Shown here: one piece after another, positions 7,210 to 44,725 of the stretch
How positions within the stretch are numbered: the first letter of the stretch is position 1
Layout: each line of letters begins with the position of its first letter
Sequence record: NC_054637.1
Length of the DNA: 46,833 nucleotides
Source of the DNA: Escherichia phage vB_EcoS Sa179lw
Direction: 5' to 3' (one strand)
Program-made: the position numbers and the translations under genes
The notes under the pieces: generated by a model
Databases searched by the model: none
What the model was told of the DNA's origin: nothing
What the model saw: only the letters and a program-made list of their open reading frames with translations

Positions 7210-7244
7210 TTCATCACCTCTAACATTTATTGTTGTTTCTACGT

Positions 7245-7280
7245 CACTAACTATAAACGCCACTTCAATCTACGTCAACA
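7245..7280 (-). promoter_or_regulatory. Sigma70-like early promoter: TTGACG, 17-bp spacer, TATAGT (minus strand)
   Basis: -35 at 7273-7278 and -10 at 7250-7255 read on the minus strand; contains the recurring ATCTACGTCA motif. Confidence 0.6.
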
Positions 7281-7325
7281 GTAATATGCTAAAATCATGC
7301 TAATCAAACAACAGGAGATTCAAAC

Positions 7326-7445
7326 ATGGGTTCAACAAACGGTCCGTCTCGTTCACGCGCCACTGGCAATACTAAAACTGGCGGCAAAACTGGCGCAGTG
7401 AAGCCAAACGGCTCTACCCGCTCACCATCACGCGGTAAGAAATAA
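7326..7445 (+). CDS. Small basic protein, 39 aa
   Basis: RBS ACAGGAG then ATG 7326; TAATG coupling to the next gene. Confidence 0.4.
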   Translation: MGSTNGPSRSRATGNTKTGGKTGAVKPNGSTRSPSRGKK

Positions 7446-7885
7446 TGTTCGGCGCAGATATTGCCATCATGATCATGTATGTGCTCGGCTTTTCCTGCAC
7501 AGGCATGATTGCGTTTCTGGTGTTCATTCCGGCAATGGTGATGTCTGTGTATCTTGGATGGGTGCTTGTTGATTCATTTCCCGCCGAATATCTGTATTAC
7601 CTTGCGCAGTCTATGGTCTGGCTGTTCCCAGCTATAGCCTTGCGCAAAAGTACAAAGATGGCGCTCTGCGTGCTGACGATGAGCCTTTACGAATGGCTTG
7701 TGGCTGTCGAGTCATTCGTATGGGAATTTATCACGCCTGTAGAAACGCCGCTTCATGCGCAGTACGCATTTATTATTATTGGCATCCATCTGTTCATCCT
7801 TTCCATCACTTTTAAATGGGGCGGCGAAATTGGATATTATTCTTGGCGTGGTCGCCATCGTTTTTTCGCTGATTCAAATCTATAA
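7445..7885 (+). CDS. Integral membrane protein, 146 aa
   Basis: Several hydrophobic segments in the translation. Confidence 0.5.
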   Translation: MFGADIAIMIMYVLGFSCTGMIAFLVFIPAMVMSVYLGWVLVDSFPAEYLYYLAQSMVWLFPAIALRKSTKMALCVLTMSLYEWLVAVESFVWEFITPVETPLHAQYAFIIIGIHLFILSITFKWGGEIGYYSWRGRHRFFADSNL

Positions 7886-7917
7886 GTGCTGGAAACATAT
7901 CATCAGCGAGACTCGCA

Positions 7918-8202
7918 ATGAACGGAACACTAAGACAAGTCGCAGAGCAGATCATAAGCGGGACGACAGGTCAGGTGATTGACAAAGCTGGCTATGCTTC
8001 CATTGGCACTGGTATCGGCCTTAAGGTTGCAGAACAAACACCTGTCACGCAATCGTATTTTGAAGCAATGATTCCACACTCATTAACAGAGTGGGCGGCA
8101 GTGGCATCAATACTTGGTGCACTGTCTCTGGTAATAAAAAACCTCTTTGAAATGTGGTGGAAGGTACGGGAGTCGAAGAAAAATGGCAGCACCAACACCT
8201 GA
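7918..8202 (+). CDS. Membrane protein, 94 aa, one predicted TM segment
   Basis: Hydrophobic segment WAAVASILGALSLVI. Confidence 0.45.
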   Translation: MNGTLRQVAEQIISGTTGQVIDKAGYASIGTGIGLKVAEQTPVTQSYFEAMIPHSLTEWAAVASILGALSLVIKNLFEMWWKVRESKKNGSTNT

Positions 8203-8575
8203 AGAATTAGTAAGCCAGATGGCATCCCGCGGAATGACTATCACCACAACGGATGCGTCAGGTATTCTGTGCCTTGTGGCATCAATCAGTGAATGCCTTG
8301 AGCTGAATTATCCCAATGATGAATGCCGACAAAATGCGATCATGCTGTGGGCTTCAATCCTGATTGGGGCTAATACCGCAGGCCGCTATGTCACCAGTCA
8401 GAGTGCACCATCCGGAGCATCGCAATCATTTGCTTATGGCAGCAAGCCGTGGGTGGCTCTTTATAACCAGATGAAATTACTGGACAGCGCGGGTTGCACT
8501 GGCGATTTAGTGGAAGACCCTGATGGCGGTAGTAAGCCATGGTTTGTGGTTGTTAGTGGGAGTAGATGCAAATGA
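8183..8575 (+). CDS. Putative head-tail connector / neck protein, about 130 aa
   Basis: Position in a run of overlapping genes between capsid and tail genes; function by synteny only. Confidence 0.45.
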   Translation: MAAPTPEELVSQMASRGMTITTTDASGILCLVASISECLELNYPNDECRQNAIMLWASILIGANTAGRYVTSQSAPSGASQSFAYGSKPWVALYNQMKLLDSAGCTGDLVEDPDGGSKPWFVVVSGSRCK

Positions 8576-8913
8576 CTTCACTTGCTCGGTTTTCTTACAC
8601 GCAACCATGCACCATCTGGCACAAAAGCGGCACGGACAAGTATGGAAAGCCGACTTTTGATGCGCCAGTGGGCATCATGTGTGACTATGGCTTTAACGAT
8701 GATGTATCGACTGATGCGAAAGGTAATGAGATTGTACAGAAGAACACTTTCTGGACAGAATACACTAGCGCTAAGGTAGGTGATTACATCATGATTGGCA
8801 CGGTAACAGATGCTGACCCGCTGGCGGCTGGCGCAAATCAGATTCTGAATGTGATTAATTATGGCAATACGTTCAATCGCGCTGAGCCTCCTGACTTTGC
8901 ACTGGTGACATAA
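8566..8913 (+). CDS. Putative head-tail adaptor protein, 115 aa
   Basis: Synteny; overlapping start/stop with neighbours. Confidence 0.45.
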   Translation: MQMTSLARFSYTQPCTIWHKSGTDKYGKPTFDAPVGIMCDYGFNDDVSTDAKGNEIVQKNTFWTEYTSAKVGDYIMIGTVTDADPLAAGANQILNVINYGNTFNRAEPPDFALVT

Positions 8914-9311
8914 TGCCAGCGAAATTAAGAGGCGTCAGGCAGGCCGTAGAAAGAACATCGCAGATTGTGGATGAGATAATCGCCACGAAAGCTGTGCGCG
9001 CTATGAAGTCAGCGACATACATCATCCGCACAGAATCAGCCACGTTAACGCCGATTGATACATCGACGCTGATTAACAGCCAGTTTGATACCGTGGAAGT
9101 TAACGGAACGCGAATCACTGGTAGGGTTGGCTACTCTGCGAAATATGCCATTTACGTCCACAATGCCAGCGGTAAACTTGCAGGGAAACCGCGCAGCAAC
9201 GGCAATGGTACATACTGGTCGCCGGGCGGTGAACCGCAATTTTTAACCAAAGGTGCGCGGCGCACAAAAGACCTTGTTGATAGCGCAATTAAGAAGGAGA
9301 TGACACTGTGA
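8913..9311 (+). CDS. Putative tail completion protein (HK97 gp10-like), 132 aa
   Basis: Synteny and size. Confidence 0.45.
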   Translation: MPAKLRGVRQAVERTSQIVDEIIATKAVRAMKSATYIIRTESATLTPIDTSTLINSQFDTVEVNGTRITGRVGYSAKYAIYVHNASGKLAGKPRSNGNGTYWSPGGEPQFLTKGARRTKDLVDSAIKKEMTL

Positions 9312-9682
9312 ATATGCTTGAACTGGTTGATGCATATCTTCAGGATGCCGGATTATACGATGGCTGGACTTCGCAGTTGCAGTTCTGGAATGACACCGGA
9401 GACGGCAATGAGCAATTTATTGTCCTGCAATCCAACGGCGGCACACAGGTGATGGATGGCCTCGGCGGTGACTTCTATTTCTCGCTGTATATTGTCGGCA
9501 AACAAGGACAATACAACGTTCAGGATGTTGATGCGAAAGCCAATGAAATTATCGAATACATCAAGACGCATCCGATTGATTCATGCGTGAACTACATCCA
9601 GTTGCAGGCTCCGCTCGGACGACCAATGTTGACGGAAGAGAAGCGCCCTGTGCATGAGTTGCTTTTGCGGGTTGTGAAATAA
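9308..9682 (+). CDS. Putative tail terminator / neck protein, 124 aa
   Basis: Synteny; last gene before the terminator and major tail gene. Confidence 0.45.
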   Translation: MNMLELVDAYLQDAGLYDGWTSQLQFWNDTGDGNEQFIVLQSNGGTQVMDGLGGDFYFSLYIVGKQGQYNVQDVDAKANEIIEYIKTHPIDSCVNYIQLQAPLGRPMLTEEKRPVHELLLRVVK

Positions 9683-9686
9683 ATAA

Positions 9687-9712
9687 AGCCGCACGAAGCG
9701 GCCTTATTACTG
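9687..9712 (+). terminator. Candidate terminator
   Basis: Hairpin GCCGCACGAAGCGGC followed by a weak T tract. Confidence 0.4.
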
Positions 9713-9736
9713 GTTTAAGCATTGCCAGCGTGCTTT

Positions 9737-9801
9737 CTTAACATCCAGCCCCGTACCCATACATACCCCTACATATGATTGCGATAATGCTGGATGTTAA
9801 G
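9737..9801. repeat. Perfect 13-bp inverted repeat (CTTAACATCCAGC / GCTGGATGTTAAG) separated by 39 bp
   Basis: Read directly; lies in a 540-bp non-coding gap. Confidence 0.85.
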
Positions 9802-10174
9802 TGTTGTGGCTCTGGTGCCTCCAGATTGCTGGTCGGTAAATCCAGCAGGCAATCGCAAAACCAAATGGAGTGTATCTTTACCTTGCCGCGTGCGCATAGC
9901 CGCATTACCACAACGGAAAGAGCACTGAGACAAACGTCTTTGTCGCCTGCGCAAAGGGTTCGAGTTCCACTGATATGCGCCAATGCCCTCACCTGTTGTG
10001 CGCCCATTATTAATCACACCGGGCCAGTGCGCCGAATTTGTTTACAAGGAATCGGAAGACCTTGCTGATTTACAGGTTATTACGCCGCCATCAGAACAAC
10101 ATCATCGTTTGCATTTATCTTTGTGGTCAGTTTCTAAAAACCCGCAAAGTCGCTCACGAAAACTATCTGAAATA

Positions 10175-10222
10175 CAATCTACACCACAAAATAATACCTG
10201 TCAACACCTGTGATATAATCAC
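10175..10222 (+). promoter_or_regulatory. Candidate late promoter for the major tail gene: AATCTACACCAC ... TGTCAACACC ... TGATATAAT (extended -10)
   Basis: Extended -10 TGA+TATAAT at 10211-10219; poor -35; same architecture as 12184-12234. Confidence 0.5.
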
Positions 10223-10255
10223 CACGTTAGCAGCTAACACAATTCGGAGATCGAA

Positions 10256-10972
10256 ATGGCTATTTGTGCAAATGATAAAGGAGTTCTGGTCGGTCGCATG
10301 ACCAGACTGTTCCTTGCTGAAGGGTGCGGTGACGCAGTTCCGGAGGCAGGAGACTGGAAGTATTTAGGTTCAACCACCAGTAAAGGAGTTGACTACTCGC
10401 CGCAGACCACTACGTCGGAAGCGGATACCGCTGGCGGCTTTGTTTCCACTCTCGTTACCAGCTCTGATATGACCATCAGCGCAGAGGTGGAAATCCGCAA
10501 GAATGACCCGAGCGATGAGTTTGGATTCCATCGTCTTGTTGAGATTTACGCCACTGAACTGAAAGCGCGTCGCCAGCCCTCTCTGTGGGTGCGTCAGGTT
10601 ACTGGTGCAACTATCGTTACCGCGTACTGCAACATTACCAGCATCAGCTACGAAGGTGGCACGAACGACATCGTCACTGGCAGCCTTGAGTTCAAGGTTT
10701 ACGATTCTGACAGCGTTACCGTCGAAAGCCTTGAACCTCTGGCATTCACTACCGACCTGCAATCAACTGGTAGCACTGGCAGCCCGTTAACTGTTGCTGT
10801 TGAAGGTGGCGTTGCTCCTTACACTTATGTATGGCGCAAAGATGGTGTGGTTGTTGGTAGTGAGTCTGGCGCTTCACTGGCAAGCCCAACCGCTGGCGTG
10901 TATACAGTTACCGTTACCGACTCATCTACTGACCCTGAAATTATTATCAGTACGGCCTGCACAGTATCCTGA
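10256..10972 (+). CDS. Major tail protein with C-terminal Ig-like domain, 238 aa
   Basis: Position upstream of tail assembly and tape measure genes; C-terminal segment VAPYTYVWRKDG...GVYTVTVTDS is Ig-like. Confidence 0.6.
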   Translation: MAICANDKGVLVGRMTRLFLAEGCGDAVPEAGDWKYLGSTTSKGVDYSPQTTTSEADTAGGFVSTLVTSSDMTISAEVEIRKNDPSDEFGFHRLVEIYATELKARRQPSLWVRQVTGATIVTAYCNITSISYEGGTNDIVTGSLEFKVYDSDSVTVESLEPLAFTTDLQSTGSTGSPLTVAVEGGVAPYTYVWRKDGVVVGSESGASLASPTAGVYTVTVTDSSTDPEIIISTACTVS

Positions 10973-10975
10973 TAA

Positions 10976-11008
10976 AGAAAAAGCCCCGAAAGGGGCTTTG
11001 TTTATTCT
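10976..11008. terminator. Bidirectional terminator
   Basis: Hairpin AAAGCCCCGAAAGGGGCTTT followed by GTTTATT. Confidence 0.7.
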
Positions 11009-11199
11009 TGTGGAGGTCCCGGTAGCGGCATCCAGTGGTCGAAGGTGGTCTGTGCTAATTCATCATATTCGTTGTACCAGTCACTCCATGACTCCCCATC
11101 CCAACAAAAAACATTTTTCTGCACTACCTCATTCACGCATACCAAAACAGCGACGTTCGTAGGAGGCATCATCTCACTACACTTAATCCACTGGCTCAT
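11002..11199 (-). CDS. DUF551-like small protein, 65 aa
   Basis: W-rich translation ending DHWMPLPGPP, as recalled for DUF551 phage proteins. Confidence 0.55.
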   Translation of the reverse strand: MSQWIKCSEMMPPTNVAVLVCVNEVVQKNVFCWDGESWSDWYNEYDELAQTTFDHWMPLPGPPQE

Positions 11200-11486
11200 A
11201 ATCCTTCCTCATTCATCTTCAGGAAAACAATCATGGCGGCGCGTAGTGGGTTTCTGTCTTCAGTGGTGAACTTTGAAGCCACGCCAAATGCCGTTGGCCA
11301 AGCCTGTGGGATGGTGTATTGATATGGCACGACTGCGATATGGTTTTCAACAATAATAGGCCATGCATCAGCTGGGTTGCTGCAGTAGTCTTTTGCCTTA
11401 AATGAATTCAATCCTGAAATTTGCATAATCTCTGCGTGCACACGGCAGTTAATTTCAAAATCACTCATCTCTTCATAATTTTTCAT
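11196..11486 (-). CDS. Hypothetical protein, 96 aa
   Basis: ORF track; overlapping start/stop. Confidence 0.45.
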   Translation of the reverse strand: MKNYEEMSDFEINCRVHAEIMQISGLNSFKAKDYCSNPADAWPIIVENHIAVVPYQYTIPQAWPTAFGVASKFTTEDRNPLRAAMIVFLKMNEEGL

Positions 11487-11626
11487 ATCACCTTATCCTC
11501 ATCAAAAATCACACCAATCACACGAAGCAAGTCTTTCGCCATGCGCTCAGCCTCTTCGTAATCGTAACCTGCATCAACATACAGCTCTGTGTAGAAAATC
11601 AGGTCTGATTTTGTTTGTTCGTTCAT
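11483..11626 (-). CDS. Hypothetical acidic protein, 47 aa
   Basis: Manual translation MNEQTKSDLIFYTELYVDAGYDYEEAERMAKDLL...; coupled to neighbours. Confidence 0.3.
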   Translation of the reverse strand: MNEQTKSDLIFYTELYVDAGYDYEEAERMAKDLLRVIGVIFDEDKVI

Positions 11627-11829
11627 TTCTTGTCGCCACTGTTAACTAATGCCCAAACAAGTGCTGCAACCCAACCAATAAAGCTCCATCCGACAAGAAT
11701 ATTCAGCACACAGATTGCGGTAGTATTTGTATGCTTTCTTTGCAATGCCACAAATGATGGGAGAAGATAAGCAAATATCACCAATCCAGCGAAAAACAAC
11801 AAAATAACAACGTCCATAGCTAACCTCAA
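11623..11829 (-). CDS. Small membrane protein, 68 aa, two hydrophobic segments
   Basis: Translation VVILLFFAGLVIFAYLL and ILVGWSFIGWVAALVWALV. Confidence 0.5.
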   Translation of the reverse strand: MRLAMDVVILLFFAGLVIFAYLLPSFVALQRKHTNTTAICVLNILVGWSFIGWVAALVWALVNSGDKK

Positions 11830-11849
11830 CTGTTAATAACTTGTTTATA

Positions 11850-12143
11850 TTACATGCCATTCTTTTCGCACAAAGCAACAGATACATCACGCAATTGCTC
11901 TTTGGTCATATCATTGCGTGCATAAACCATTTCTACGATAGCAAGGCCGATTATTTCTGCTGATTCGTTGTTTTTTGTGGAACCCTTAACTACCACCTCG
12001 GCAAGATTCTTGCTGATACCGTTATCTCGAGCATCGGCAGTGTTCATGGCGACTTCTCCGATGCTTTTACAAACCTCAGAGGTTGCACTCACCGCAAAGG
12101 AGGAAGCAAACAGCACTGATGCAATCAACATTTTAATTTTCAT
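11850..12143 (-). CDS. Secreted or periplasmic protein with N-terminal signal peptide, 97 aa
   Basis: MKIKMLIASVLFASSFAVSA signal-like N-terminus; RBS GAGGTGAG. Confidence 0.55.
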   Translation of the reverse strand: MKIKMLIASVLFASSFAVSATSEVCKSIGEVAMNTADARDNGISKNLAEVVVKGSTKNNESAEIIGLAIVEMVYARNDMTKEQLRDVSVALCEKNGM

Positions 12144-12183
12144 AACTCACCTCATTTATTCATCACTCGTTTCGATGACTTTA

Positions 12184-12234
12184 ATCTACATCACCACCTC
12201 ACAGGTGTCAACACCACCGAGATGATATAATCAA
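12184..12234 (+). promoter_or_regulatory. Candidate late promoter for the tail assembly / tape measure operon; same architecture as 10175-10222
   Basis: AATCTACATCACC ... TGTCAACACC ... TGATATAAT at 12223-12231. Confidence 0.5.
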
Positions 12235-12251
12235 CATCAGTCAAATTCAGG

Positions 12252-19711: not shown

Positions 19712-19750
19712 TACAATATACATCAAATTCACAAAGGAGCATTTATTATA

Positions 19751-26981: not shown

Positions 26982-27224
26982 ATGAAAAGTATTGCAGAAC
27001 AAATAAGGGAAATGGAACAGAAAAAGCTGTCAGAGCTGATTAATTATGTTGGCGGACAGTCTCAACTGGCAAGGTTCCTTGGCGTATCAAAACAGGCGGT
27101 CAATCAATGGGTATCAAGAGGAAGAATTAGTGCTACAGAGGCTATTCATGCTGAAATGCTAACTGGTGGTGCTTTCAGGAAAGAAGATTTAAGGCCAGCC
27201 GTTACAAAGTGGATAGTGAAATGA
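26982..27224 (+). CDS. Cro/YdaS-like HTH DNA-binding protein, about 80 aa
   Basis: HTH segment QSQLARFLGVSKQAVNQWVSRG; encoded opposite to the surrounding operon; own terminator. Confidence 0.6.
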   Translation: MKSIAEQIREMEQKKLSELINYVGGQSQLARFLGVSKQAVNQWVSRGRISATEAIHAEMLTGGAFRKEDLRPAVTKWIVK

Positions 27225-30189: not shown

Positions 30190-30214
30190 AACAACACCCT
30201 CTCCAGTAATCTAA

Positions 30215-30250
30215 ATACAATATACCAACATTCCTATAATTAGGCAACAT
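30215..30250 (-). promoter_or_regulatory. Candidate leftward early promoter: TTGCCT, 17-bp spacer, TATATT (minus strand)
   Basis: Read on the minus strand at 30242-30247 and 30219-30224. Confidence 0.5.
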
Positions 30251-30356
30251 ACTCAATACACACAAAACAAATGAACAGCGTTGACAAGAAAAAACAAAAG
30301 GTGTATCAATACAGGTATGTTGTGTAAGTGGTTGTTTTGAAAAGAAAAAGAATCCG

Positions 30357-30591
30357 ATTTGCCAGCTATTTGCCAGCTATTTTCCAATGATAAGTTACTG
30401 ATTTTTAACTATTTACCCTAATTTCCTATTTGACACGGCTCTAAACGATATTTGATGTCCGGGAATAAAATTTATAGACCACCCGTGGCAAATAGGGCAA
30501 ATAGAAAATAGAAAAAAACAAAAGCAAAAACAGCAACTTAAAAACAAAAAAGTTTGGCAAATAGAAAGAAAATAGAAAGAAAATAGAAAAC
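30357..30591. repeat. Iteron cluster: tandem TTGCCAGCTAT x2, GGCAAATAG x3, AAAATAGAAAG x3, with A-rich tract; candidate replication origin or operator array
   Basis: Direct reading; non-coding; flanked by divergent promoters and an AT-rich stretch at 30640-30780. Confidence 0.7.
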
Positions 30592-30789
30592 AGGAAACAA
30601 ACCACAAGTAACCAGCTTAACTGCTGGTTTTCGTGTTTCTGTGAACTAAGTTATTAATATCTATAATAAATATAAAGAAGATCTTAATATACTTTATAGA
30701 TGTAATAAACAAAGGTTACTATTAATAATATATGTAACTATATGCTTAAGCTAGCGTTCACTAACATCTATTAATATTTTTCTCCATGT

Positions 30790-30825
30790 GCATTGACGTA
30801 GAATCATTGTTGATGTAGATTAAAA
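30790..30825 (+). promoter_or_regulatory. Rightward early promoter: TTGACG, 17-bp spacer, TAGATT
   Basis: -35 at 30793-30798, -10 at 30816-30821; carries inverted copies of the ATCTAC(A/G)TC motif. Confidence 0.6.
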
Positions 30826-33527: not shown

Positions 33528-33556
33528 TAACCCGCCTTGTGCGGGTTCTTTTTTGC
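33528..33556 (+). terminator. Rho-independent terminator ending the early rightward operon
   Basis: Hairpin AACCCGCCTTGTGCGGGTT followed by CTTTTTTG. Confidence 0.7.
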
Positions 33557-33595: not shown

Positions 33596-34057
33596 ATGTC
33601 AGATAAACCAATCGGGCGACCGACAGAATACAAACCTGATTACGATGAGCAGGCTTACAACTATTGCCTGCTTGGCGCTACCGATAAGCAGCTTGCAACT
33701 TTCTTTGATGTGAGCGAGCAGACAATAAACGCGTGGAAGCACAAGCACCCTTCGTTTCTTGAGTCCTTAAGGCGCGGAAAGGAAATTGCAGATGCGCGAG
33801 TTGCTCAGGCTTTGTTCAGTAGGGCTACCGGTTATGAGCACCCAGAAGACGATATCAAGGCGGTTAATGGTGAAATAGTAATCACACCAACAATAAAAAG
33901 ATACCCGCCAGACCCTACATCAATGATTTTCTGGCTAAAAAACAGACAGCCAAAATTGTGGCGAGATAAACCTGAGTCGGAAGGTTCTGATGGTGACGGC
34001 GCAATCCATAAAGTGCAGATTGAGGTGATTAGTGCAGATAAGAGTAACGGCAACTGA
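33596..34057 (+). CDS. terS: Terminase small subunit, 153 aa
   Basis: Immediately upstream of and overlapping the large terminase; N-terminal HTH-like segment. Confidence 0.65.
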   Translation: MSDKPIGRPTEYKPDYDEQAYNYCLLGATDKQLATFFDVSEQTINAWKHKHPSFLESLRRGKEIADARVAQALFSRATGYEHPEDDIKAVNGEIVITPTIKRYPPDPTSMIFWLKNRQPKLWRDKPESEGSDGDGAIHKVQIEVISADKSNGN

Positions 34058-35339
34058 GCCACAAGCCAGATACCTGAATCTTAAGTGTAAATTCCCGGCT
34101 TTTATTGCTGGCTTTGGCACTGGAAAGTCAGAAACCATGTGCAACTCAGCACTTCTTGATAGCCTTGAGGGTGGTTCAGATAGTCTGGTCGCTTTGTATG
34201 AGCCGACCTATGACCTCGTGCGTCTTATTCTTGCCCCCCGCATGGAGGAGAAACTAATCGACTGGGGTGTCAGGTACAAATACAACAAGGCAGAGAACAT
34301 AATTTACACGTCATCAGGACAGATGGGGGATTTTGTCCTCAGGACTCTTGATAATCCAGCGCGAATAGTTGGTTATGAGTCGTTCAGGGCAAAGATAGAC
34401 GAAATTGACACCCTTAAGCAAGAACATGCATCTGAGGCGTGGATAAAAATAATTGCCCGTAATCGACAGCGCCCAAGAACTTATATGGATACCTCAGGAA
34501 AGCCAATGAACACTGTTGGCATATTCTCAACCCCAGAGGGGTTCCGGTTTGTTTATGACAGATGGGTAAAGAACAAAAAGGATGGGTACGAAATGGTGCA
34601 GGCAAGCACTATGAGCAACCCTTTCCTTCCTGATGATTACGTTCAGTCGCTGCGAGATAGCTATCCACCGCAACTCATTGAGGCATATTTGCAGGGCGAG
34701 TTTGTAAACCTCACATCTGGCACTGTCTATCCTCAATTCGACAGGAATCTTAATCACAGCGATGAGGAATACAGGACGGGTGAGCCAGCCCATGTCGGCA
34801 TGGACTTCAACGTAGGAAAGATGTCTGCGATTATCCATGTTGAAAGGAATGGCGACCCGATCGCAGTTGGCGAGATACTCGGAGCTTACGATACGCCGGA
34901 AATGATTCGGTTAATAAAACAGCGCCTGTGGAGGGAGACATCAAATGGCGAGTTTGAGAAACTGTGTGAAATTTATGTTTATCCTGATGCATCGGGCGGT
35001 AGCCGTAAAACCGTGAACGCTGGCACGTCAGATATAGCCTTATTGAGAGATGCTGGCTTTCATGTTATGGCTGACAGTAAGAACCCGCCGGTCAGGGACC
35101 GCATCAACTCTGTTAACGCGATGTTCTGCAACGCTGAAGGCGAGCGCAGATACAAGGTAAATACAAAGCTGTGCCCAATCTACACTGAGGCGAGAGAGCA
35201 GCAGATTTACAACAAGCAGGGAGAACCAGACAAAACTCACGATAAGGACCACCCGAACGATGCGGCTGATTATTACATTTATAATAAGTTCCCACTCGTA
35301 CGACCAATGGCAGCAATGCTAATTCGGCGCAGGCGTTAA
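34032..35339 (+). CDS. terL: Terminase large subunit, 435 aa
   Basis: Walker A GFGTGKS near the N-terminus; C-terminal nuclease-like acidic motifs; GTG start after GAGGTGA. Confidence 0.85.
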   Translation: MQIRVTATEPQARYLNLKCKFPAFIAGFGTGKSETMCNSALLDSLEGGSDSLVALYEPTYDLVRLILAPRMEEKLIDWGVRYKYNKAENIIYTSSGQMGDFVLRTLDNPARIVGYESFRAKIDEIDTLKQEHASEAWIKIIARNRQRPRTYMDTSGKPMNTVGIFSTPEGFRFVYDRWVKNKKDGYEMVQASTMSNPFLPDDYVQSLRDSYPPQLIEAYLQGEFVNLTSGTVYPQFDRNLNHSDEEYRTGEPAHVGMDFNVGKMSAIIHVERNGDPIAVGEILGAYDTPEMIRLIKQRLWRETSNGEFEKLCEIYVYPDASGGSRKTVNAGTSDIALLRDAGFHVMADSKNPPVRDRINSVNAMFCNAEGERRYKVNTKLCPIYTEAREQQIYNKQGEPDKTHDKDHPNDAADYYIYNKFPLVRPMAAMLIRRRR

Positions 35340-35767: not shown

Positions 35768-35800
35768 TAAATCTACATCACCAACATATCTACGTCAACA
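35768..35800 (-). promoter_or_regulatory. Leftward early promoter: TTGACG, 17-bp spacer, TAGATT (minus strand)
   Basis: -35 at 35793-35798, -10 at 35770-35775 on the minus strand. Confidence 0.55.
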
Positions 35801-35834
35801 TTTATTATTGTTGTTGATAAATCCACACCACAAC

Positions 35835-35868
35835 ACTTGACCAATCTACACCGTGCGCATATAGTTAT
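35835..35868 (+). promoter_or_regulatory. Rightward early promoter: TTGACC, 17-bp spacer, TATAGT
   Basis: -35 at 35837-35842, -10 at 35860-35865; AATCTACACC in the spacer. Confidence 0.6.
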
Positions 35869-35896
35869 CTACATCGGAAACATCGGAGGTGCTACT

Positions 35897-36103
35897 ATGC
35901 GCAGCTATGCAGGATTTACACAGGAGGAAAAAGAGCAGGTTTATTCACTGGCGCGTGCTGGTGTGCCTGATGATGTGATTTGCCGTCGGTATGACATCGA
36001 CGAGGATTTCCTGCTGCGCGTCATTGATGATGTCTTCGTTAACCTGCAAGAGAAGCGTGGGTACAAGGGTATCTGCTGCAAGAATGATTTTTTGAGAGGG
36101 TGA
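35897..36103 (+). CDS. Hypothetical protein, 68 aa
   Basis: ATG at 35897 preceded by GGAGGTG. Confidence 0.5.
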   Translation: MRSYAGFTQEEKEQVYSLARAGVPDDVICRRYDIDEDFLLRVIDDVFVNLQEKRGYKGICCKNDFLRG

Positions 36104-36702: not shown

Positions 36703-36711
36703 GGTGATGTG

Positions 36712-37136: not shown

Positions 37137-37139
37137 GTG

Positions 37140-37451
37140 ATGAGCATAAAAAATCCAATGCACCCGGGCGAGTTTCTGCTGGAGGCATTCATGAAGCCAT
37201 TCGGAATTGGTGTTAAGAAAATGGCCGATGCACTTGGGGTTTCGCAGTCAACAGTTAGCAGGCTCATCAACAAGAAGGCTGATTTAACTGCCGACATGGC
37301 TGTCAGATTGTCCGTTGTTGTTGGGAGGTCACCAGAGTCATGGTTGAATATGCAAAACAATTACAGCCTAAATAGACTTACCGCCGATAATGGTCGCTTA
37401 CTGTCATCTTTGAAGCCAATTAAATTTGATTTTGATTACAAGGTGGAGTGA
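37140..37451 (+). CDS. higA: HigA-like XRE-family HTH antitoxin homolog, about 103 aa
   Basis: HPGEFLLEAF...SQSTVSRLINKKADLTADMAVRLSVVVGRSPESWLNMQNNYSL closely parallels the recalled E. coli HigA sequence; no HigB/RelE-like partner adjacent. Confidence 0.8.
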   Translation: MSIKNPMHPGEFLLEAFMKPFGIGVKKMADALGVSQSTVSRLINKKADLTADMAVRLSVVVGRSPESWLNMQNNYSLNRLTADNGRLLSSLKPIKFDFDYKVE

Positions 37452-37654: not shown

Positions 37655-37664
37655 TACCATGCTA

Positions 37665-37695
37665 TAATCCCTCCATCGTGAGGGATTTTTTATTG
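37665..37695 (+). terminator. Rho-independent terminator before the portal gene
   Basis: Hairpin ATCCCTCCATCGTGAGGGAT followed by TTTTTATT. Confidence 0.65.
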
Positions 37696-37702
37696 GTGAC
37701 AT

Positions 37703-39115: not shown

Positions 39116-40046
39116 CGCACGCCTTCCACAGCCGCGCATATCACAGAGCCTGACCGACCCGCTGGGCTCTGCAACTCGCCTGTCGAAGATGGACAAAGCG
39201 ATAACGCGCAAATACAAACAGCTCAGGTCTCGTGCGCTTGAGTTGTTTCGCACTATTCCGAGCAGTCAGGCCAACGCAGAATCAAGTGGGTTGTATTTCT
39301 ATGACTTCAGTAGTGCGCGAGCTGCAACTTTCATGGATGAGTTGCAGGCGCTGATTGATGAGATTCTGCTGGAAGGTGATGATTTCGGTCACGGCAGGAT
39401 GTGGGCGAACGTGTTCATTGGTGATGCGTATCAGGCCGGAACGCAGAAGGCCAACTCTGAGCTGTCAATCCTGTCTCCCGTTTACGCCGAGCAACGACCG
39501 ATTGCTGCGATACTCTATAGCGAACCATACCTTAACCGCCTGCAACTGGCTTACACGGCGGGATACAGTGACTGGCGCGGCTTGAGTGATTATTCACGGC
39601 AGCAGCTGGCATCTGTCATTATGGAAGGCATTGCCCGTGGCGCAAATCCTCGCGACGTTGAGGCTGATATTGTTAAGCGTGTTGATGTGTCGCACAGTTA
39701 CGCCAAGCAAATTGCGCAGACTGAAATTACCGGAACACTACGTCAAGCCAACAGGCGTGAGGTCATTGAGGCTCGCGAAGAGTTAGGCATTGAGACTGTA
39801 ATGCTGTGGCAGTCGGCACTGATGCGAACAACCCGCCAGACTCACGCGTCGAGACATGGGCGGTTTTATACGCCAGAAGAGATTGATACGTTTTATAGCG
39901 AGGTAGCAAACCGCAGAAATTGCCACTGCAGCCAAGTCCCAGCACTTGTGATGGATGGTAAGCCAGTAATTCTTGAATCATCACAAGAGCGGTTGGATAA
40001 GCAACGCGAAGCGTGGCAATCAGCAAACAAAAAGCCCTCTAAGTGA
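39096..40046 (+). CDS. Putative head morphogenesis protein (Mu gpF / SPP1 gp7-like), about 316 aa
   Basis: Position directly after portal; start chosen at internal ATG overlapping the portal end. Confidence 0.5.
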
Positions 40047-40060
40047 GGGCTTTGATTTAT
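40031..40060. terminator. Bidirectional terminator overlapping the stop codon
   Basis: Hairpin AAAGCCCTCTAAGTGAGGGCTTT. Confidence 0.6.
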
Positions 40061-40129
40061 CTTATCAGCATGCACAGAACAAATATTATTATCGCATAGC
40101 ACAATATCTCTACGACGCTGAATATTGTT

Positions 40130-40774
40130 TTAATCATCCAGTTTAACGCCGGGAATTTTGCCTGCCGCGATGGCGTCGTAAATGATTTCGTATTCGCTAT
40201 AAATCCAGTTATCGCCCTCGTCAGCTTCTCTCTGCATTGCTTCCACTGCTGCATCGCGCTTCCTTTCCGCTTCAGTGATGGCTGGTTTTAGGCTTTCTGG
40301 TACGAAGCAACATGACCTTCCTGCGCCGCGTTCATCCCAATAACAAACTGCCACATTATTGCCATCCGTTGTTGTCTTGTGTGCAACCACTTCCATTTCA
40401 GTGCCAGCATCAGGAATCCAGGCGTTTCTGTATCCAATTTTTGGATTAATGAAGAACTCAACTTTCTCACCAACTGGCGGCAGACCTTCGCCGTTCCATG
40501 CTGGCTTTTGCGATGCGGCGAGTGCTGCTTTATATTGCCAATAGGTCACTATCGACTCCCTGTGGTCGCAAGATAAAGGTACACCCTCAATTCCATGCCA
40601 GTAATACACAAGGCTATTCCCAGTGTGATGTTTCCATGAAAATCCATCATAGTGGGGATCATTCGTGTCCCATACACACAGCGAACCGTCATCATCTTGA
40701 GTAATTGACAGAGCACCATCAGGCCACCCGCCACGCTTAGGTAATTCTTGAACTAACATGTCGATAAGTTTCAT
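40130..40774 (-). CDS. Hypothetical protein, 214 aa, W/H-rich
   Basis: ORF track with start at MKLIDMLVQ; ATGA coupling to upstream small gene. Confidence 0.5.
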   Translation of the reverse strand: MKLIDMLVQELPKRGGWPDGALSITQDDDGSLCVWDTNDPHYDGFSWKHHTGNSLVYYWHGIEGVPLSCDHRESIVTYWQYKAALAASQKPAWNGEGLPPVGEKVEFFINPKIGYRNAWIPDAGTEMEVVAHKTTTDGNNVAVCYWDERGAGRSCCFVPESLKPAITEAERKRDAAVEAMQREADEGDNWIYSEYEIIYDAIAAGKIPGVKLDD

Positions 40775-40950
40775 TTTGTTTCTCCAAAAAAGTACGCGTG
40801 ATTCGATTGCTTGGTAATGATTGGCAGCCAAAGATTGCTATCTCTTCCAATCCTCATTGCTTCTCGATCATTAAACCATCGCAGCTTTTTATTATTTGAC
40901 TCCCAGTGGTCAAGTTTTAATAATCTGCGAGCCACTTTGTTACTTTTCAT
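40771..40950 (-). CDS. Hypothetical basic protein, 59 aa
   Basis: Manual translation MKSNKVARRLLKLDHWESNNKKLRWF...; RBS GGGAGAAAACAG. Confidence 0.4.
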   Translation of the reverse strand: MKSNKVARRLLKLDHWESNNKKLRWFNDREAMRIGRDSNLWLPIITKQSNHAYFFGETK

Positions 40951-41216
40951 CTGTTTTCTCCCAGTGCCTTATTAACCGCCGCACGCGCATTATCCAGAGC
41001 GCGACGCTTGCTTGATGTTGTCCAGACTTTGCCGGAGTGGTCGTCGTAGATTTCCAGTATTTGCTGGAGTGCTGAAAGCATAGCTTTGTTATTGTCGTGG
41101 CAATATCCAACAGAAAACCCAAACCAAAGCCAGTCCACTTCCCTATCAGTCATGTCGCAAAAACCAACGGAATCGAACCACTTGTTAAATAATTGGTGCA
41201 GTTCTCGCTTCGTCAT
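40947..41216 (-). CDS. Hypothetical protein, about 89 aa
   Basis: ORF track with ATG at 41216 after GAGG. Confidence 0.45.
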   Translation of the reverse strand: MTKRELHQLFNKWFDSVGFCDMTDREVDWLWFGFSVGYCHDNNKAMLSALQQILEIYDDHSGKVWTTSSKRRALDNARAAVNKALGENR

Positions 41217-41223
41217 CACAGCC

Positions 41224-41382
41224 TCACTTAATATATTCAACAATCTCACACTCGCGCATTTGCATCAAACCAAATGGTGCAACTACCTTTCCGCACGGAC
41301 TGATTTTGATTTGCTCAAGATCGAACACTCCGCAGCGTCCGTTTTCTTTGAATTTGACAATTACCATTTTGCAACCATCCAT
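41224..41382 (-). CDS. Hypothetical Cys-containing protein, about 52 aa
   Basis: Manual translation MDGCKMVIVKFKENGRCGVFDLEQ...; start uncertain. Confidence 0.3.
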   Translation of the reverse strand: MDGCKMVIVKFKENGRCGVFDLEQIKISPCGKVVAPFGLMQMRECEIVEYIK

Positions 41383-41522
41383 TTCATTTCTTTGACCATG
41401 CGTTGAGCTGCTTTCTTGGTGTGACCGGCAGCCATCAATTGCTTCACCTTTGCTTTTTTGTTGGCAGCCTTCGCAGCCTTCGGATTTGGCTCACTGTAAA
41501 AAGCAACGTCACGCGGATTCAT
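41361..41522 (-). CDS. Small basic lysine-rich protein, about 53 aa
   Basis: ATG at 41522 six nt after GAGGTG; first gene after the promoter at 41545-41585. Confidence 0.45.
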   Translation of the reverse strand: MNPRDVAFYSEPNPKAAKAANKKAKVKQLMAAGHTKKAAQRMVKEMKWMVAKW

Positions 41523-41544
41523 TTTCATCACCTCACTCATCATT

Positions 41545-41585
41545 TGATGTAGATACTATGCACCACCACTCAATCTACGTCAATA
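41545..41585 (-). promoter_or_regulatory. Candidate leftward early promoter with TTGACGTAGATTG motif (minus strand)
   Basis: -35 TTGACG at 41578-41583 on the minus strand; -10 TAGTAT lies at 19-bp spacing, so the exact -10 is uncertain. Confidence 0.4.
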
Positions 41586-41627
41586 GCCATTGTGATAGAA
41601 TTAATCATTATTTGAACAGGAGGCAGA

Positions 41628-41906
41628 ATGAAACTATCGCGACGCGGCAAAGAGACGCTTGGAATCACCGATGCCGTGGATATATCGCCTTACATCACCA
41701 CCGAGACGACACAGAATCAGTTTGATGCGCTGACGAGCCTTGCTACTGACATTGGCATTGACGTGTTCCGTAAATCAACGCTTCTGAAGAAGCACAATCT
41801 CCGCTGCTTCTCATGTGCTGTTGCGCATTTCATCGTGTGGGGCGAGAAGACTGGCGACAAAGCAAAACGCAAAGCTGAAAAAGAGGTTTACTGGTATGGC
41901 TATTAG
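41628..41906 (+). CDS. Hypothetical hydrophilic protein, 92 aa, overlapping the endolysin start
   Basis: RBS AGGAGG before ATG 41628; no transmembrane segment seen. Confidence 0.5.
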   Translation: MKLSRRGKETLGITDAVDISPYITTETTQNQFDALTSLATDIGIDVFRKSTLLKKHNLRCFSCAVAHFIVWGEKTGDKAKRKAEKEVYWYGY

Positions 41907-42360
41907 CAAAAACATGAAGGCATTTTTGGATATGCTGGCGTACAGTGAGGGCACGGATAACGGGCGACAGAAAACTAATAATCATGGCTATGATGTGATT
42001 GTTGGTGGCTCACTGTTTACTGACTATTCCGACCACCCACGCAAGCTGATTAGCCTGCCAAATCTGGGTATCAAATCCACTGCCGCCGGGCGCTATCAGG
42101 TGCTGGCTAAGTTCTATGATGCGTACAAAAAGCAGTTGCGCCTGCCTGACTTCTCTCCCGCATCGCAGGACGCTATTGCAATACAGCTAATTCGTGAATG
42201 CAAAGCCACCGCCGATATTGAGGCTGGTCGCATTGCTGATGCTATTCATAAATGCCGTTCCCGCTGGGCCTCACTGCCGGGCGCTGGTTATGGTCAGCAT
42301 GAGCAAAAACTGGATAAGCTGATTCAGGTGTACAAGTCCGCTGGCGGGACGGTCGCATGA
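41896..42360 (+). CDS. R: Endolysin, lambda R-like lytic transglycosylase, 154 aa
   Basis: KAFLDMLAYSEGTDNGRQKT.NHGYDVIVGG.LFTDYSDHPRKL and WASLPGAGYGQ match the lambda R sequence as recalled. Confidence 0.85.
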   Translation: MAISKNMKAFLDMLAYSEGTDNGRQKTNNHGYDVIVGGSLFTDYSDHPRKLISLPNLGIKSTAAGRYQVLAKFYDAYKKQLRLPDFSPASQDAIAIQLIRECKATADIEAGRIADAIHKCRSRWASLPGAGYGQHEQKLDKLIQVYKSAGGTVA

Positions 42361-42596
42361 AAAAGCTAAGCAACTGGCTGCTTGGCCTGTGGATTTCATT
42401 CTGCTCGCTATTGCAGATATGGCCTGAGTCCATGCTTTATGTGTGGGCCATGATGCCGGACGACCTGAAATCTGCGCTGCCACCTTTTGCTGTTAAAGGG
42501 GTCAGTTATTCCGTTATGCTGGCGGCGATTCTTGGCAAGATGCATGCGATGAATAAGGCGAATAAGAGGCTAAAAGATGAGAGTAATGATGCGTGA
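42357..42596 (+). CDS. Candidate holin (two hydrophobic segments, charged C-terminus), 79 aa
   Basis: Hydrophobic segments LSNWLLGLWISFCSLLQIW and VSYSVMLAAILG; ATGA coupling to the endolysin gene. Confidence 0.45.
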   Translation: MKKLSNWLLGLWISFCSLLQIWPESMLYVWAMMPDDLKSALPPFAVKGVSYSVMLAAILGKMHAMNKANKRLKDESNDA

Positions 42597-42718
42597 AATA
42601 CATAAGTCCATAAAGGCGCGAGGTGGTTTTTATTCTGCATATCAGACCACCAAGGGATTGCACCTCATAACCAATTGCATGGCATTCCCACATCTGTGGC
42701 TGGCGGGAGCACTGAAAG

Positions 42719-43210
42719 ATGATGGCAATTCTCACTAAATACTGGCGACCGCTGGCAATTATTATAATTGTCGCTATCTGCGCGCTATGGGTTGTTAACA
42801 AGGTGTCCAGCTATGGTGAGCAGAGATACAACGACGGGTATGCGAAGGCTGTAGCAGAACAGAAGGCCGCAAACAAAAAAGAGGAGCAACGACGCAATGC
42901 AGAACTGCAAAAGATTCAGGCTGACGCACAACAAAGGATTGATGCTGCGCGCAACGATGCTGTCAACGCTGCTGCTAAGTCTGGCAGGTTGCAGCAACAG
43001 CTCGCAAATATCCGCAAGCAGCTTGTCGGATATTCCGCCGCTGAGTTCATTGGCAATCCAGCCGCAGAAACCGGAGTTTTGCTTGCCGACGTGCTCAGCA
43101 AATCTGTCGAAAGAAATCGACAGCTGGCAGATTACGCTGACAGGGCAAGAGAAGCAGGATTAGCGTGTGAGGCGCAGTACAATTCGCTGCGCAATAAAAA
43201 AGCCCCGTAA
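42719..43210 (+). CDS. Rz: Rz-like i-spanin, 163 aa
   Basis: N-terminal TM segment followed by coiled-coil-like Q/A/R/E-rich periplasmic domain; position after the endolysin. Confidence 0.65.
   Translation: MMAILTKYWRPLAIIIIVAICALWVVNKVSSYGEQRYNDGYAKAVAEQKAANKKEEQRRNAELQKIQADAQQRIDAARNDAVNAAAKSGRLQQQLANIRKQLVGYSAAEFIGNPAAETGVLLADVLSKSVERNRQLADYADRAREAGLACEAQYNSLRNKKAP
42942..43163 (+). CDS. Rz1: Rz1-like o-spanin lipoprotein, embedded in the +1 frame of the Rz-like gene
   Basis: Lipobox-like LSLAGC followed by a Pro-rich segment; entirely within the Rz-like gene. Confidence 0.55.
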   Translation: MLRATMLSTLLLSLAGCSNSSQISASSLSDIPPLSSLAIQPQKPEFCLPTCSANLSKEIDSWQITLTGQEKQD

Positions 43211-43228
43211 TGGGGCTTGTGTTTAATT
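43196..43228. terminator. Bidirectional terminator after the lysis cassette
   Basis: Hairpin AAAAAGCCCCGTAATGGGGCTT followed by GTGTTT. Confidence 0.65.
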
Positions 43229-43349
43229 GGCTTGATCTGAGCTTTCTCTCTGCTTCCACATTTGCTTCAGCTGGAAATAAGCATACGCCTCATCACCATC
43301 TTTCGCATTGCGCTCCATTTGCTCACACCATGCTGATGGTTTTGGTGGC

Positions 43350-43655
43350 TCACTCTGCTGGTAATGTTGTTGGCTCATCAACAGATTCCTCGACCGCAGC
43401 TTCAACGATGCGCACCAACGAACACTCAAGGTTCGGCGCATTATAATTGCCAGCCAGAAACAGCACGCTACCAGTGCTAATCAACACCTGTTTTGCGCTT
43501 GCCTGCGACAGATTCTGCACGATGAATTGTGCTGTTTCGGTACCAATTTTTAGCACTGCGCTGCCGTCGCTGTTCAGTGATACCAGTTGTGCGGATGTGT
43601 CAGCGATGTTGGTGTAGTTCGCGTTTCGTTGCGCGATTGTGATGTCTGTGAACAT
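43350..43655 (-). CDS. Hypothetical protein, 101 aa
   Basis: ORF track; ATG lies one nt after the stop of the upstream reading frame. Confidence 0.5.
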   Translation of the reverse strand: MFTDITIAQRNANYTNIADTSAQLVSLNSDGSAVLKIGTETAQFIVQNLSQASAKQVLISTGSVLFLAGNYNAPNLECSLVRIVEAAVEESVDEPTTLPAE

Positions 43656-43656
43656 A

Positions 43657-43877
43657 TTAGCCTCTTACGTTTAATTTGATTTTTCCATCCACGTCGCGTG
43701 ATGCACACTCAACAGTGATTGTTAACTTGGTGATCTCTTCGACGTCTGCATCAAGAATCAAGCGGATGCAACCACCAACTATTCTACCATCCTGATCAAC
43801 AACGCGAATTTTATCATCGACTCTTTCAACGTGGAGCCAGACTTTTTTTCGTCACACCCGTTATTGAGGATTGCCAT
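43657..43877 (-). CDS. Hypothetical protein needing a -1 frameshift at A_AAA_AAG (or containing a homopolymer indel); fused product about 73 aa
   Basis: ATG at 43877 after GGAGAG; frame 0 stops after 32 codons; the -1 frame continues without a start codon to a stop at 43657-43659. Confidence 0.4.
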
Positions 43878-44416
43878 TATTTAATCTCTCCATTCAGTTC
43901 ATTGACAATTAACGTCGCATAGCCAGCAATATCTTTCCAGCTATCATCATATGTCGGGTCGCCATTCAGGATGCGCCCAATCTTGTGCTGAATCATGTCT
44001 AGCGCCTCGCGTTGGCTTGGCGTCAGATTGTGCCACCCATCCACTTCGCGCATCACATCTTTCAGCTCCTGCATGATTTCAGCACCGTCTTTGAACTTAC
44101 CGTATCGACTGCCGCGTTCGGTGATGAGTTGCTCAGTAGTATCAGCTTCCGGCGCGCCAATGCAATCATTGAGGTCTTGTTCGTCGTTGATTGGTTTACG
44201 ATGAGCGATAACCTCATACATATCCATGTCTTCGACAAATTGATTAACGCGACCATTGTTGGCAACATCTTGATATGCGCCATATTTATTCAAGTGCTCA
44301 ACGAAATAATATTTCGAATCAATCAACCTCCCCTTGAGAGTCGCCCAGTCTGGCGCACCATCAAAATCCTTCTCGCAACCTTTCAGGTATTTCCACGCTT
44401 TCATTTCTCTCTCCAC
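43877..44416 (-). CDS. Hypothetical protein, 179 aa
   Basis: ORF track; TAATG coupling downstream. Confidence 0.5.
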   Translation of the reverse strand: MEREMKAWKYLKGCEKDFDGAPDWATLKGRLIDSKYYFVEHLNKYGAYQDVANNGRVNQFVEDMDMYEVIAHRKPINDEQDLNDCIGAPEADTTEQLITERGSRYGKFKDGAEIMQELKDVMREVDGWHNLTPSQREALDMIQHKIGRILNGDPTYDDSWKDIAGYATLIVNELNGEIK

Positions 44417-44625
44417 TTAATCATCTCGCGTCGCGGCATTGTGACGCGGTTGTATTCATCAACATTAAAATTCGCCCTAATCAAATCATACATCTCATCC
44501 TTTGGCATATCAGCCAGTGCCACATAGCAACGGGCAAAGTAGCGAACATCACGGAGTGTTAGCGGCTGTCGCTTCTCCACAATGCTGGTGATAATGTCCA
44601 TCGGCTCTCGTCGTGGTCTTGGCAT
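44401..44625 (-). CDS. Hypothetical protein, about 74 aa
   Basis: ATG at 44625 after AAAGGAG. Confidence 0.45.
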   Translation of the reverse strand: MPRPRREPMDIITSIVEKRQPLTLRDVRYFARCYVALADMPKDEMYDLIRANFNVDEYNRVTMPRREMIKWREK

Positions 44626-44725
44626 ATTTACTACTCCTTTTTCGAAATTATTGTTGACCAATCTACATCATTTAGTCAATACTTATTGACGTAGATTGTA
44701 CCACAACGGAAAAGGTGATGTGGAA

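Follow-up and report, generated by a model that had tools for sequence, protein, structure and literature searches.

The stretch analysed here, which we call the window, is the 46.8 kb (46,833 nt) sequence of Escherichia phage vB_EcoS Sa179lw (NC_054637.1). Since published genomes of its group are of 45–48 kb, it is probably a whole, circularly permuted genome. It matches virulent siphophages of Salmonella, E. coli, Shigella and Klebsiella, among them Sf11, Akira, swi2, C1, E1 and the BASEL phages Bas77–80, with approximately 88–91% identity over 40–76% of its length. The phage is itself a virulent siphophage of the Skatevirus/Sf11/E1 group, and neither an integrase nor a CI-type repressor was found in the window. 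In the BASEL paper, the group goes under the name 'Skatevirus and relatives' and its Klebsiella clade under that of Roufvirus (PMC11990801). Rightward packaging, head, tail and lysis operons are laid out along the genome, and between them lie short clusters of small genes and a single replication operon, all leftward. The subject of this work is a short motif, ATCTACRTCA, that recurs at the promoters of this genome; motif-bearing promoters head accessory gene clusters and also operons with terminase, portal, lysis, head and tail genes. The early regulon that a first-pass annotation had suggested is a tentative label. A literature search, which covered subscription journals incompletely, turned up no earlier account of the motif or of how transcription is controlled in these phages.

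A first-pass annotation of the window had listed 14 copies of the motif; all are present, each at most 2 bp from the position first given. Nine copies are exact, as compared to 0.22 expected (no shuffled sequence gave nine), and the other five of the 14 deviate by one or two bases. We derived a matrix from the 14 copies and scanned the window at a threshold of ≥12 bits, with Markov-shuffled sequence as control; this gave 16 matches versus 2.2 expected, and by both counts the motif is well over chance genome-wide. The two additional matches, at 12230–12239 and 19716–19725, are intergenic. Indeed, all 16 matches lie in the non-coding 6.9% of the window (binomial P ~3e-19, some gene starts having been set by hand for this fraction) and copies are found on both strands, so that the initial description of an exclusively intergenic motif in both orientations holds. 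When the 14 copies are aligned, 11 positions are informative, wATCTACrTCA, and the flanks carry no information. The complementary strand, tTGAyGTAGATt, contains both a −35-like TTGACG and a −10-like TAGATT. The element is asymmetric: self-complementarity is limited to a central ACGT, and half of the copies have ACAT there. Enrichment of 8-mers over the whole window was too noisy to recover the motif.

An independent scan for sigma-70 promoters recovered nine motif-associated promoters among its top-ranked sites (Table 1). They have 9–10 of 12 hexamer matches and spacers of 17–18 bp, as sigma-70 promoters should; the total of promoter-like matches in the window is not above the shuffled expectation, and the scan supports top-ranked, conserved sites only. 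Three promoters with a TTGACG −35 and a 17-bp spacer that had been proposed earlier (7278→7250, 30793–30821 and 35798→35770) are among the best ranked.

Table 1. Motif copies, associated promoters and candidate binding proteins in the window.
Feature	Coordinates	Strand	Remarks
ParB/KorB-like protein, 273 aa	5944–6765	-	DGQHR variant of ParB N-terminal motif (arginine patch); ParB helix-turn-helix (HTH)
Motif copy TTCTACGTCA	7237–7246	+	Minus strand TGACGTAGAA; 3 nt downstream of leftward −10, start-site region; invariant in 64 distinct relatives
Promoter, sigma-70-like, TTGACG-17-TATAGT	7250–7278	-	Heads operon with ParB-like gene; 10/12 matches
Motif copy ATCTACGTCA	7268–7277	+	Complement is leftward TTGACG −35; also in −35 zone of rightward TAAAAT promoter
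Promoter TTGACA-17-TAGATT	10176–10204	-	Back to back with rightward extended −10 TGaTATAAT (10211–10219), major tail gene
Motif copy ATCTACACCA	10177–10186	+	Complement overlaps leftward TAGATT −10
Promoter TTGACA-17-TAGATT	12183–12211	-	Back to back with rightward extended −10 TGaTATAAT (12223–12231), tail operon
Motif copy ATCTACATCA	12184–12193	+	Complement overlaps leftward TAGATT −10
Degenerate copy ATCAACATCA	12230–12239	+	Over end of rightward TATAAT and start-site region; 12.9 bits; conserved in 28 relatives
Weak copy ATATACATCA	19716–19725	+	Short gap between central tail protein and tailspike genes; SB28 equivalent has two full copies
Promoter TTGACG-17-TAGATT	30793–30821	+	Two motif copies 17 bp apart; heads small genes ahead of terminase
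Motif copy, plus strand TTGACGTAGAA	30794–30803	-	Gives −35 of rightward promoter
Motif copy, plus strand TGATGTAGAT(T)	30811–30820	-	Gives TAGATT −10
Promoter TTGACG-17-TAGATT	35770–35798	-	Found in relatives only where leftward gene exists
Motif copy	35771–35780	+	Complement is leftward −10 (TAGATT)
Motif copy	35788–35797	+	Complement is leftward −35 (TTGACG)
Degenerate upstream copy ATCCACACCA	35821–35830	+	10.7 bits; relatives read ATC(T/C)GCATCA
Promoter TTGACC-17-TATAGT	35837–35865	+	Heads p68, more small genes, then portal; conserved in 32/32 aligned relatives
Motif copy ATCTACACCG	35844–35853	+	Forward orientation, spacer, directly after TTGACC −35
Motif copy ATCTACATCG	35867–35876	+	Forward orientation, directly after −10, start-site region
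p68, 68 aa, acidic	35897–36103	+	Predicted three-helix HTH-like fold; first gene after most conserved motif promoter
Motif copy ATCTACATCA	41545–41554	-	Just downstream of leftward −10
Promoter TTGACG-17-CATAGT	41555–41583	-	Sigma-70 scan
Motif copy	41573–41582	+	Complement is leftward TTGACG −35; also −35 zone of rightward extended −10 TGaTAGAAT (41593–41601), lysis genes
p74, 74 aa, basic (pI 9.6)	44401–44625	-	Conserved N-terminal arm MPRPRREP; predicted winged-helix fold
Overlapping divergent promoters	44650–44683	both	TTGACC-18-AATACT (44654–44683, rightward); TTGACT-18-AACAAT (44679–44650, leftward)
Motif copy	44661–44670	+	Directly after rightward TTGACC −35; also in spacer of leftward p74 promoter
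Motif copy, plus strand TTGACGTAGATT	44687–44696	-	Over predicted start-site region of rightward promoter

The copies are placed on these promoters in at least four registers: over the −35 (7268, 30794, 35788 and 41573), over the −10 (10177, 12184, 30811 and 35771), in the spacer directly after the −35 and in the opposite orientation (35844 and 44661), or in the start-site region in either orientation (7237, 35867, 41545 and 44687). In promoter coordinates they cover −34 to −25, −28 to −19, −17 to −8 and approximately −5 to +7, in both orientations. Promoters with two copies are in the majority; over six complete genomes, the copies are spaced by 10, 17, 21–26, 28 or 30–31 bp as direct or inverted repeats. 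Pairing in both orders had also been remarked upon in the first-pass annotation. A strong leftward promoter and a rightward one without a recognisable −35 stand back to back in four regions (7268–7295, 10176–10219, 12183–12231 and 41555–41601). The genes ahead of which these rightward promoters lie are those for head-tail, major tail, tail and lysis functions. An extended −10 is present in three of the rightward promoters, as TGaTATAAT in two and as TGaTAGAAT in the third.

This geometry could suggest a positive element, either an activator or sigma-appropriation site like the T4 MotA box, or a loading site for a Q-like antiterminator. Its attraction lies in the four rightward structural and lysis promoters, where the motif is at or upstream of the position of the missing −35, and in two predicted terminators, 33529–33547 and 37666–37687, which are downstream of motif promoters and just upstream of the terminase small subunit and portal genes; in addition, −10-like TAGATT/TAGAAA sequences occur in the initially transcribed region (7237–7246 and 44687–44696), as at lambda PR′. 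However, the position and orientation of the motif relative to the −10 vary (−35, spacer, −10, +1), unlike those of MotA boxes and Q-binding elements, and most motif promoters have a near-consensus −35 and −10, for which activation should be unneeded. We thus regard a positive element as unlikely. The two hairpins are strong and terminator-like, on the plus strand, and sit within operons led by motif-bearing promoters; the late genes may depend on read-through or antitermination at these points.

Every relative that was sampled keeps the motif, and keeps it at the same promoters. Nearly all of 33 loci around portal homologues have 6–14 copies per 14–21 kb, versus approximately 2–2.6 expected per full-size locus, while two 6-kb fragments among them have 2 and 4 copies. 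The motif is also enriched in loci around ParB-like homologues. Five complete relatives, including Klebsiella phage KP591P1, carry 14–19 copies each, and Akira carries 20. We aligned seven promoter regions, each from 22–64 distinct relatives. At 30793–30821 (22 relatives) both copies are invariant, while the 6 nt that separate them are freely variable and the sequences upstream have nothing in common; at 7237–7277 (64 distinct relatives) both copies and the −10 are invariant and the spacer is variable. When the seven regions are pooled, the mean major-allele frequency is 0.946 for columns of the motif only, 0.941 for columns of the hexamers only and 0.808 for other intergenic columns (Mann-Whitney p = 2e-11), and although pooled columns are not fully independent, the contrast is still present within each alignment. 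Motif-only columns thus match the hexamers and the spacers between copies vary freely, which upholds the initial suggestion that conservation extends beyond what sigma-70 needs. The leftward pair at 35771–35797 is missing exactly in those relatives without the leftward gene, the rightward promoter and its own two copies being present in all those aligned; since the pair comes and goes with its gene, every pair of copies is tied to a single promoter.

The 5′ untranslated region of the leftward operon, TGACGTAGAAACAACAATAAATGTTAGAGGTGATGA (window 7210–7250; alignment of 7195–7335), is likewise invariant in 64 distinct relatives, and the first gene behind it differs completely between phages; promoter and leader together behave as a fixed cassette at a mosaic joint.

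In another explanation, there is no dedicated factor. The repeats could derive from one ancestral sigma-70 cassette that spread by duplication and mosaic recombination, their conservation reflecting promoter strength and ancestry. The element does hold good −35 (TTGACG) and −10 (TAGATT, TAGAAT) hexamers, and whole promoter regions, 5′ untranslated regions included, are conserved and joined to unrelated genes in different relatives. Nevertheless, only one half of each copy serves as a hexamer, and conservation is just as high in the unused half, in contrast to the variable spacer bases next to it; the forward copies (35844, 35867, 44661 and 41545) lie in the spacer or start site and are still conserved. 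Furthermore, no similarity is seen between the flanks of different copies within a genome, and the copies thus did not arise by recent duplication of some longer cassette. We find this explanation improbable. Because half of each copy is unused by sigma-70 and yet as constrained as the hexamers, and because the forward copies supply no hexamer, the conservation points to a reader other than the polymerase.

That copies overlie core promoter elements in several registers and whichever way they point argues for a repressor-operator relationship, and an asymmetric site in both orientations, with variable spacing of 10–31 bp, suggests a binder that acts as a monomer. The reading that we favour, and hold to be reasonably probable, is that wATCTACrTCA is the operator of a phage-encoded, sequence-specific DNA-binding protein, placed over the cores of nearly all strong sigma-70 promoters and acting negatively, with the small protein p74 as the best candidate. 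Such a regulator would govern the entire transcription programme of the phage. A factor bound at the element would compete with the polymerase, negative action being most likely. The first-pass annotation had offered a shared operator or a phage-specific promoter class; the operator is favoured by the motif-only conservation, whereas the promoter class is unlikely for an element found in both orientations and in at least four registers relative to good hexamers. A function at the RNA level was rejected, as copies occur at transcript 5′ ends in both orientations.

With regard to the identity of the reader, the motif could be the binding or loading site of the ParB/KorB-like protein encoded in the window, which would act as a KorB-like global regulator and possibly as a cytidine triphosphate-dependent clamp. 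Sequence searches match this protein to Spo0J (3e-13) and KorB in the PDB and to HTH_ParB and KorB in Pfam. It is 97–99% identical in relatives whose portal proteins are only 67–98% identical, its operon is headed by a promoter with two motif copies, and directly ahead of its gene, in a clade where the protein is 72% identical, the ATCTAC core is arranged as a palindrome, GTCGTAGATaataATCTAC. The gene is, however, deleted in SB28 and in at least eight further isolates, which come from Canada, Kenya and other places, and a remnant of 40 aa is all that is left of it. SB28 has 16 intact motif copies, at all its promoters. SB28 and KE12, which both lack the gene, differ by 7.3% genome-wide, but from a reading of site lists their shared copies have approximately 3 changes in approximately 150 positions, two of them at the degenerate position; the motif is therefore under selection without the ParB-like protein, with the caveat that recombination with ParB-positive phages could re-import promoters into the SB28 lineage. 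Sites and ParB-family protein thus do not go together in this lineage. In addition, ParB and KorB are known to bind palindromes as dimers, whereas most sites here are single, asymmetric and in either orientation; in the window the sites are not palindromic like parS (ParB) or OB (KorB), and close inverted pairs occur in few relatives only. Distant ParB-like homologues (43–47% identical, in prophage-like loci) have a different gene context and no such motif, so that they speak neither for nor against this protein. This protein was our first favourite as binder and was downgraded on account of the SB28 lineage; we now think it an unlikely reader.

In the deletion lineage (SB28, locus L115 14409–14707; KE12, locus L189 17192–17508; Salmonella phage isolates), neighbours including RusA were deleted along with the ParB-like gene, and the remnant, in frame and C-terminal, sits behind an intact promoter. 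The clade with the 72% identical protein is represented by partial metagenomic loci alone, none of its members being in GenBank, and p74 is not in the 16.7 kb available for it. It keeps the ATCTAC core (locus L105 7950–7995, 11085–11125 and 13440–13490; loci L106 and L107) but arranges it in close inverted repeats, GTCGTAGAT-aata-ATCTACTCC, and the 3′ bases are altered. Contigs IMGVR_UViG_3300013022_000001 and 3300013104_000007 have an altered site with ATCTACGAC/ATCTACTCC palindromes. At the equivalent of 44687, a GTAGAATGATTCTAC palindrome is found in some ParB-positive relatives (loci L044, L009 and L043) and also in SB28 and KE12, without the ParB-like gene.

A host protein conserved in Enterobacteriaceae could also bind the motif and tie phage transcription to host physiology. 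Phages of Salmonella, E. coli, Shigella and Klebsiella, hosts that share most global regulators, carry an identical motif, and among the phage DNA-binding proteins of the group none that has a recognised domain is universal. Against this, the two-copy architecture is confined to this phage group: the pattern TTGACGTAGAW-N5-8-TGATGTAGATT has 35 matches in 2.9 million IMG/VR contigs, all of them in it. To our knowledge, no consensus site of an E. coli regulator (DnaA box, marbox and others, compared by eye) fits the motif; the nearest is the DnaA box, TTATNCACA, which differs from it at a critical base. Relatives do not conserve the single DnaA-like copy that the window has. A host reader is, in our estimate, very unlikely.

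Three HTH proteins had been put forward as binders in the first-pass annotation, and none is conserved among motif-bearing relatives, for which reason we rejected them. The Cro-like protein (26982–27224) is absent from Akira, the HTH_3 protein (37137–37451) is found in one relative only, and the MarR-like protein (45721–46209) is reduced to a 23-aa remnant in Akira. The proteins common to all five complete relatives are structural proteins, a helicase and a few small proteins annotated without function. Among the latter, p97 and p79 look exported and were set aside, and p47 is acidic. An otherwise conserved 64-aa coiled-coil protein, p64 (window 44984–45178), was also set aside, being interrupted by an in-frame stop codon in phage DS8 (locus L010 15843–16034), which may be a pseudogene or a sequencing error. 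Searches of Pfam, PHROGs, NCBIfam and PDB with sequences and profiles gave no match for p74, p68, p108 or p64.

The predicted model of p74 has the H1-S1-H2-H3-S2-wing-S3 order of a winged helix, in a protein that consists of a 60-residue core and a basic N-terminal arm only. From its modelled fold and its phyletic pattern, we infer that p74 is the best universal candidate for the motif binder; it would also regulate itself. The model of p68 has weak matches to NarL, GerE and CENP-B, and Asp and Glu abound in what would be its recognition helix; p68 is a weaker candidate than p74. The p74 model superposes on the domains of monomeric and other winged-helix binders (forkhead; MarR, IclR, BlaI and PadR), with no detectable sequence similarity to these families. 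Forkhead domains bind asymmetric sites of 7–10 bp as monomers, while bacterial winged-helix regulators, unlike the proposed p74, are usually dimers on palindromes.

Comparison with known systems places the element outside the Cro-type, KorB, phi29 p4 and MotA classes. As in the lambda OR and OL regions under Cro and CI, strong early sigma-70 promoters have several operator copies over their −35 and −10, some promoters diverge and overlap, and the regulator gene would be downstream of a regulated promoter. Lambda operators, however, are 17-bp near-palindromes bound by dimers at two loci, whereas the phage described here is virulent, has neither CI nor integrase, and has an asymmetric 11-mer in both orientations at approximately nine promoters. 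The element lacks the two-fold symmetry of such 14–17-bp operators, copies being single or paired at 10–31 bp, and no cognate Cro/CI gene is conserved, the Cro/YdaS-like gene at 26982–27224 being the one that Akira lacks. By analogy, the system would nonetheless work most like a Cro-type shut-off multiplied over approximately nine promoters. KorB/KorA of IncP-1 (RK2) plasmids resemble it in having one operator at most promoters of a mobile element (PMC11790492), and a KorB/ParB-family protein is encoded here in a motif-controlled operon; the KorB operator OB is, on the other hand, a 13-bp palindrome, and the phage ParB-like gene is dispensable, the motif persisting without it. In phi29, p4 acts at close divergent promoters (A2b/A2c and A3), and a small protein here would likewise repress strong early promoters and favour opposing late ones without a good −35. 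Yet p4 is a dimer that binds inverted repeats and acts with p6, while the switch here is proposed from promoter geometry only, and no sequence or protein similarity to the p4 system was found among the elements here. Thus, since the site is not palindromic, no Cro/CI gene is conserved and the ParB-family protein is dispensable, the element is not a member of the Cro, KorB or p4 class. The T4 MotA box is comparable as a short asymmetric phage element near the −35, with a small monomeric reader and a host-type, often extended, −10, and the four rightward promoters here are similar; it differs in being fixed at approximately −30 in one orientation and in replacing the −35, whereas the motif is found in either orientation from −35 to +7 and most of its promoters keep TTGACx. 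Because its position and orientation are not fixed, it does not define a MotA-type promoter class.

The favoured operator reading takes in a probable shut-off or early-to-late switch. On infection, the host polymerase would fire all consensus promoters, including that of p74. As p74 builds up, it would fill the 11-mers over −35, −10 and +1 and damp those promoters together with its own. At the four back-to-back regions, a filled motif would remove the rival leftward polymerase and free the rightward promoter, giving an early-to-late switch; p74 might also be placed at approximately −35 to −50 of the rightward extended −10 promoters and directly favour structural and lysis transcription. The runs of small genes that start from the 30793 and 35837 promoters would end at the two predicted terminators, so that in these operons the early and late parts are perhaps split by termination and not by promoter. 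In its full form, the proposal is that the 11-bp element doubles as hexamer donor (−35 in one copy, −10 in the next) and as operator of a monomeric winged-helix p74, in a genome-wide, self-regulating switch that shuts the entry promoters and hands the polymerase to the structural and lysis promoters without a phage polymerase, sigma factor or classical repressor. We put this full form forward tentatively, as a possible scheme that is less probable than its operator component.

Several points weigh against the operator reading and against the role given to p74. The promoter region of the replication operon in the window (30190–30790) has no motif copies; Akira's different replication module does carry them. 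Strong motif promoters also head the terminase and portal operons, and repression of early promoters as such therefore needs the terminators at 33529–33547 and 37666–37687. The start sites, the timing and the sign of regulation are all deduced. The assignment of p74 is a fold-level prediction with weak Foldseek E-values (0.16), and a winged helix may equally serve in contacts between proteins. The binder may also be another of the universal small proteins, such as p68 or the basic, helical p108.

The region at 30190–30790 is a stretch of 600 bp, non-coding and AT-rich, between the replication operon and the 30793 promoter. It contains iteron-like repeats (30357–30386, 30487–30504 and 30559–30589), with ATTTGCCAGCT repeated 2.7 times, its complement GGCAAATAG twice and AAATAGAAAGA 2.8 times. 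The genome ends of published relatives fall at its equivalent, where repeats are annotated in Akira, and it is probably a replication origin or packaging region. The leftward TTGACA-17-TAGATT promoter (10204→10176) drives tRNA genes in Sf11 and KP591P1; ARAGORN found no tRNA genes in the whole window, and the sole nearby candidates for transcription from this promoter are minus-strand open reading frames at 9738–10017. The large terminase (34032–35339, plus strand) is of a type other than that of Sf11, being 98.9% identical to that of phage NX263 and approximately 61% identical to those of Jersey-like phages; these identities illustrate module exchange at motif-bearing junctions.

A phage regulator with operators on its own promoters is of a familiar kind. 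What is unusual here is an asymmetric element that is used in both orientations and doubles as donor of −35 and −10 hexamers, and its presence on nearly all promoters of a virulent phage; its reader, as modelling suggests, is likely a family-specific minimal winged-helix protein, which would be unusual as well. Skatevirus, Sf11, E1 and their relatives, Bas77–80 included, are common isolates for biocontrol and typing of Salmonella, E. coli and Klebsiella. Their key regulators are probably other than the ParB/KorB-like gene and the annotated HTH genes, and this redirects experiments. If the operator reading is true, a specific uncharacterised protein is singled out, and a short operator/regulator pair would be at hand for engineering these phages. 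One conserved operator on essentially all promoters would then provide a compact model of temporal control in a small virulent siphophage that uses the host polymerase alone.

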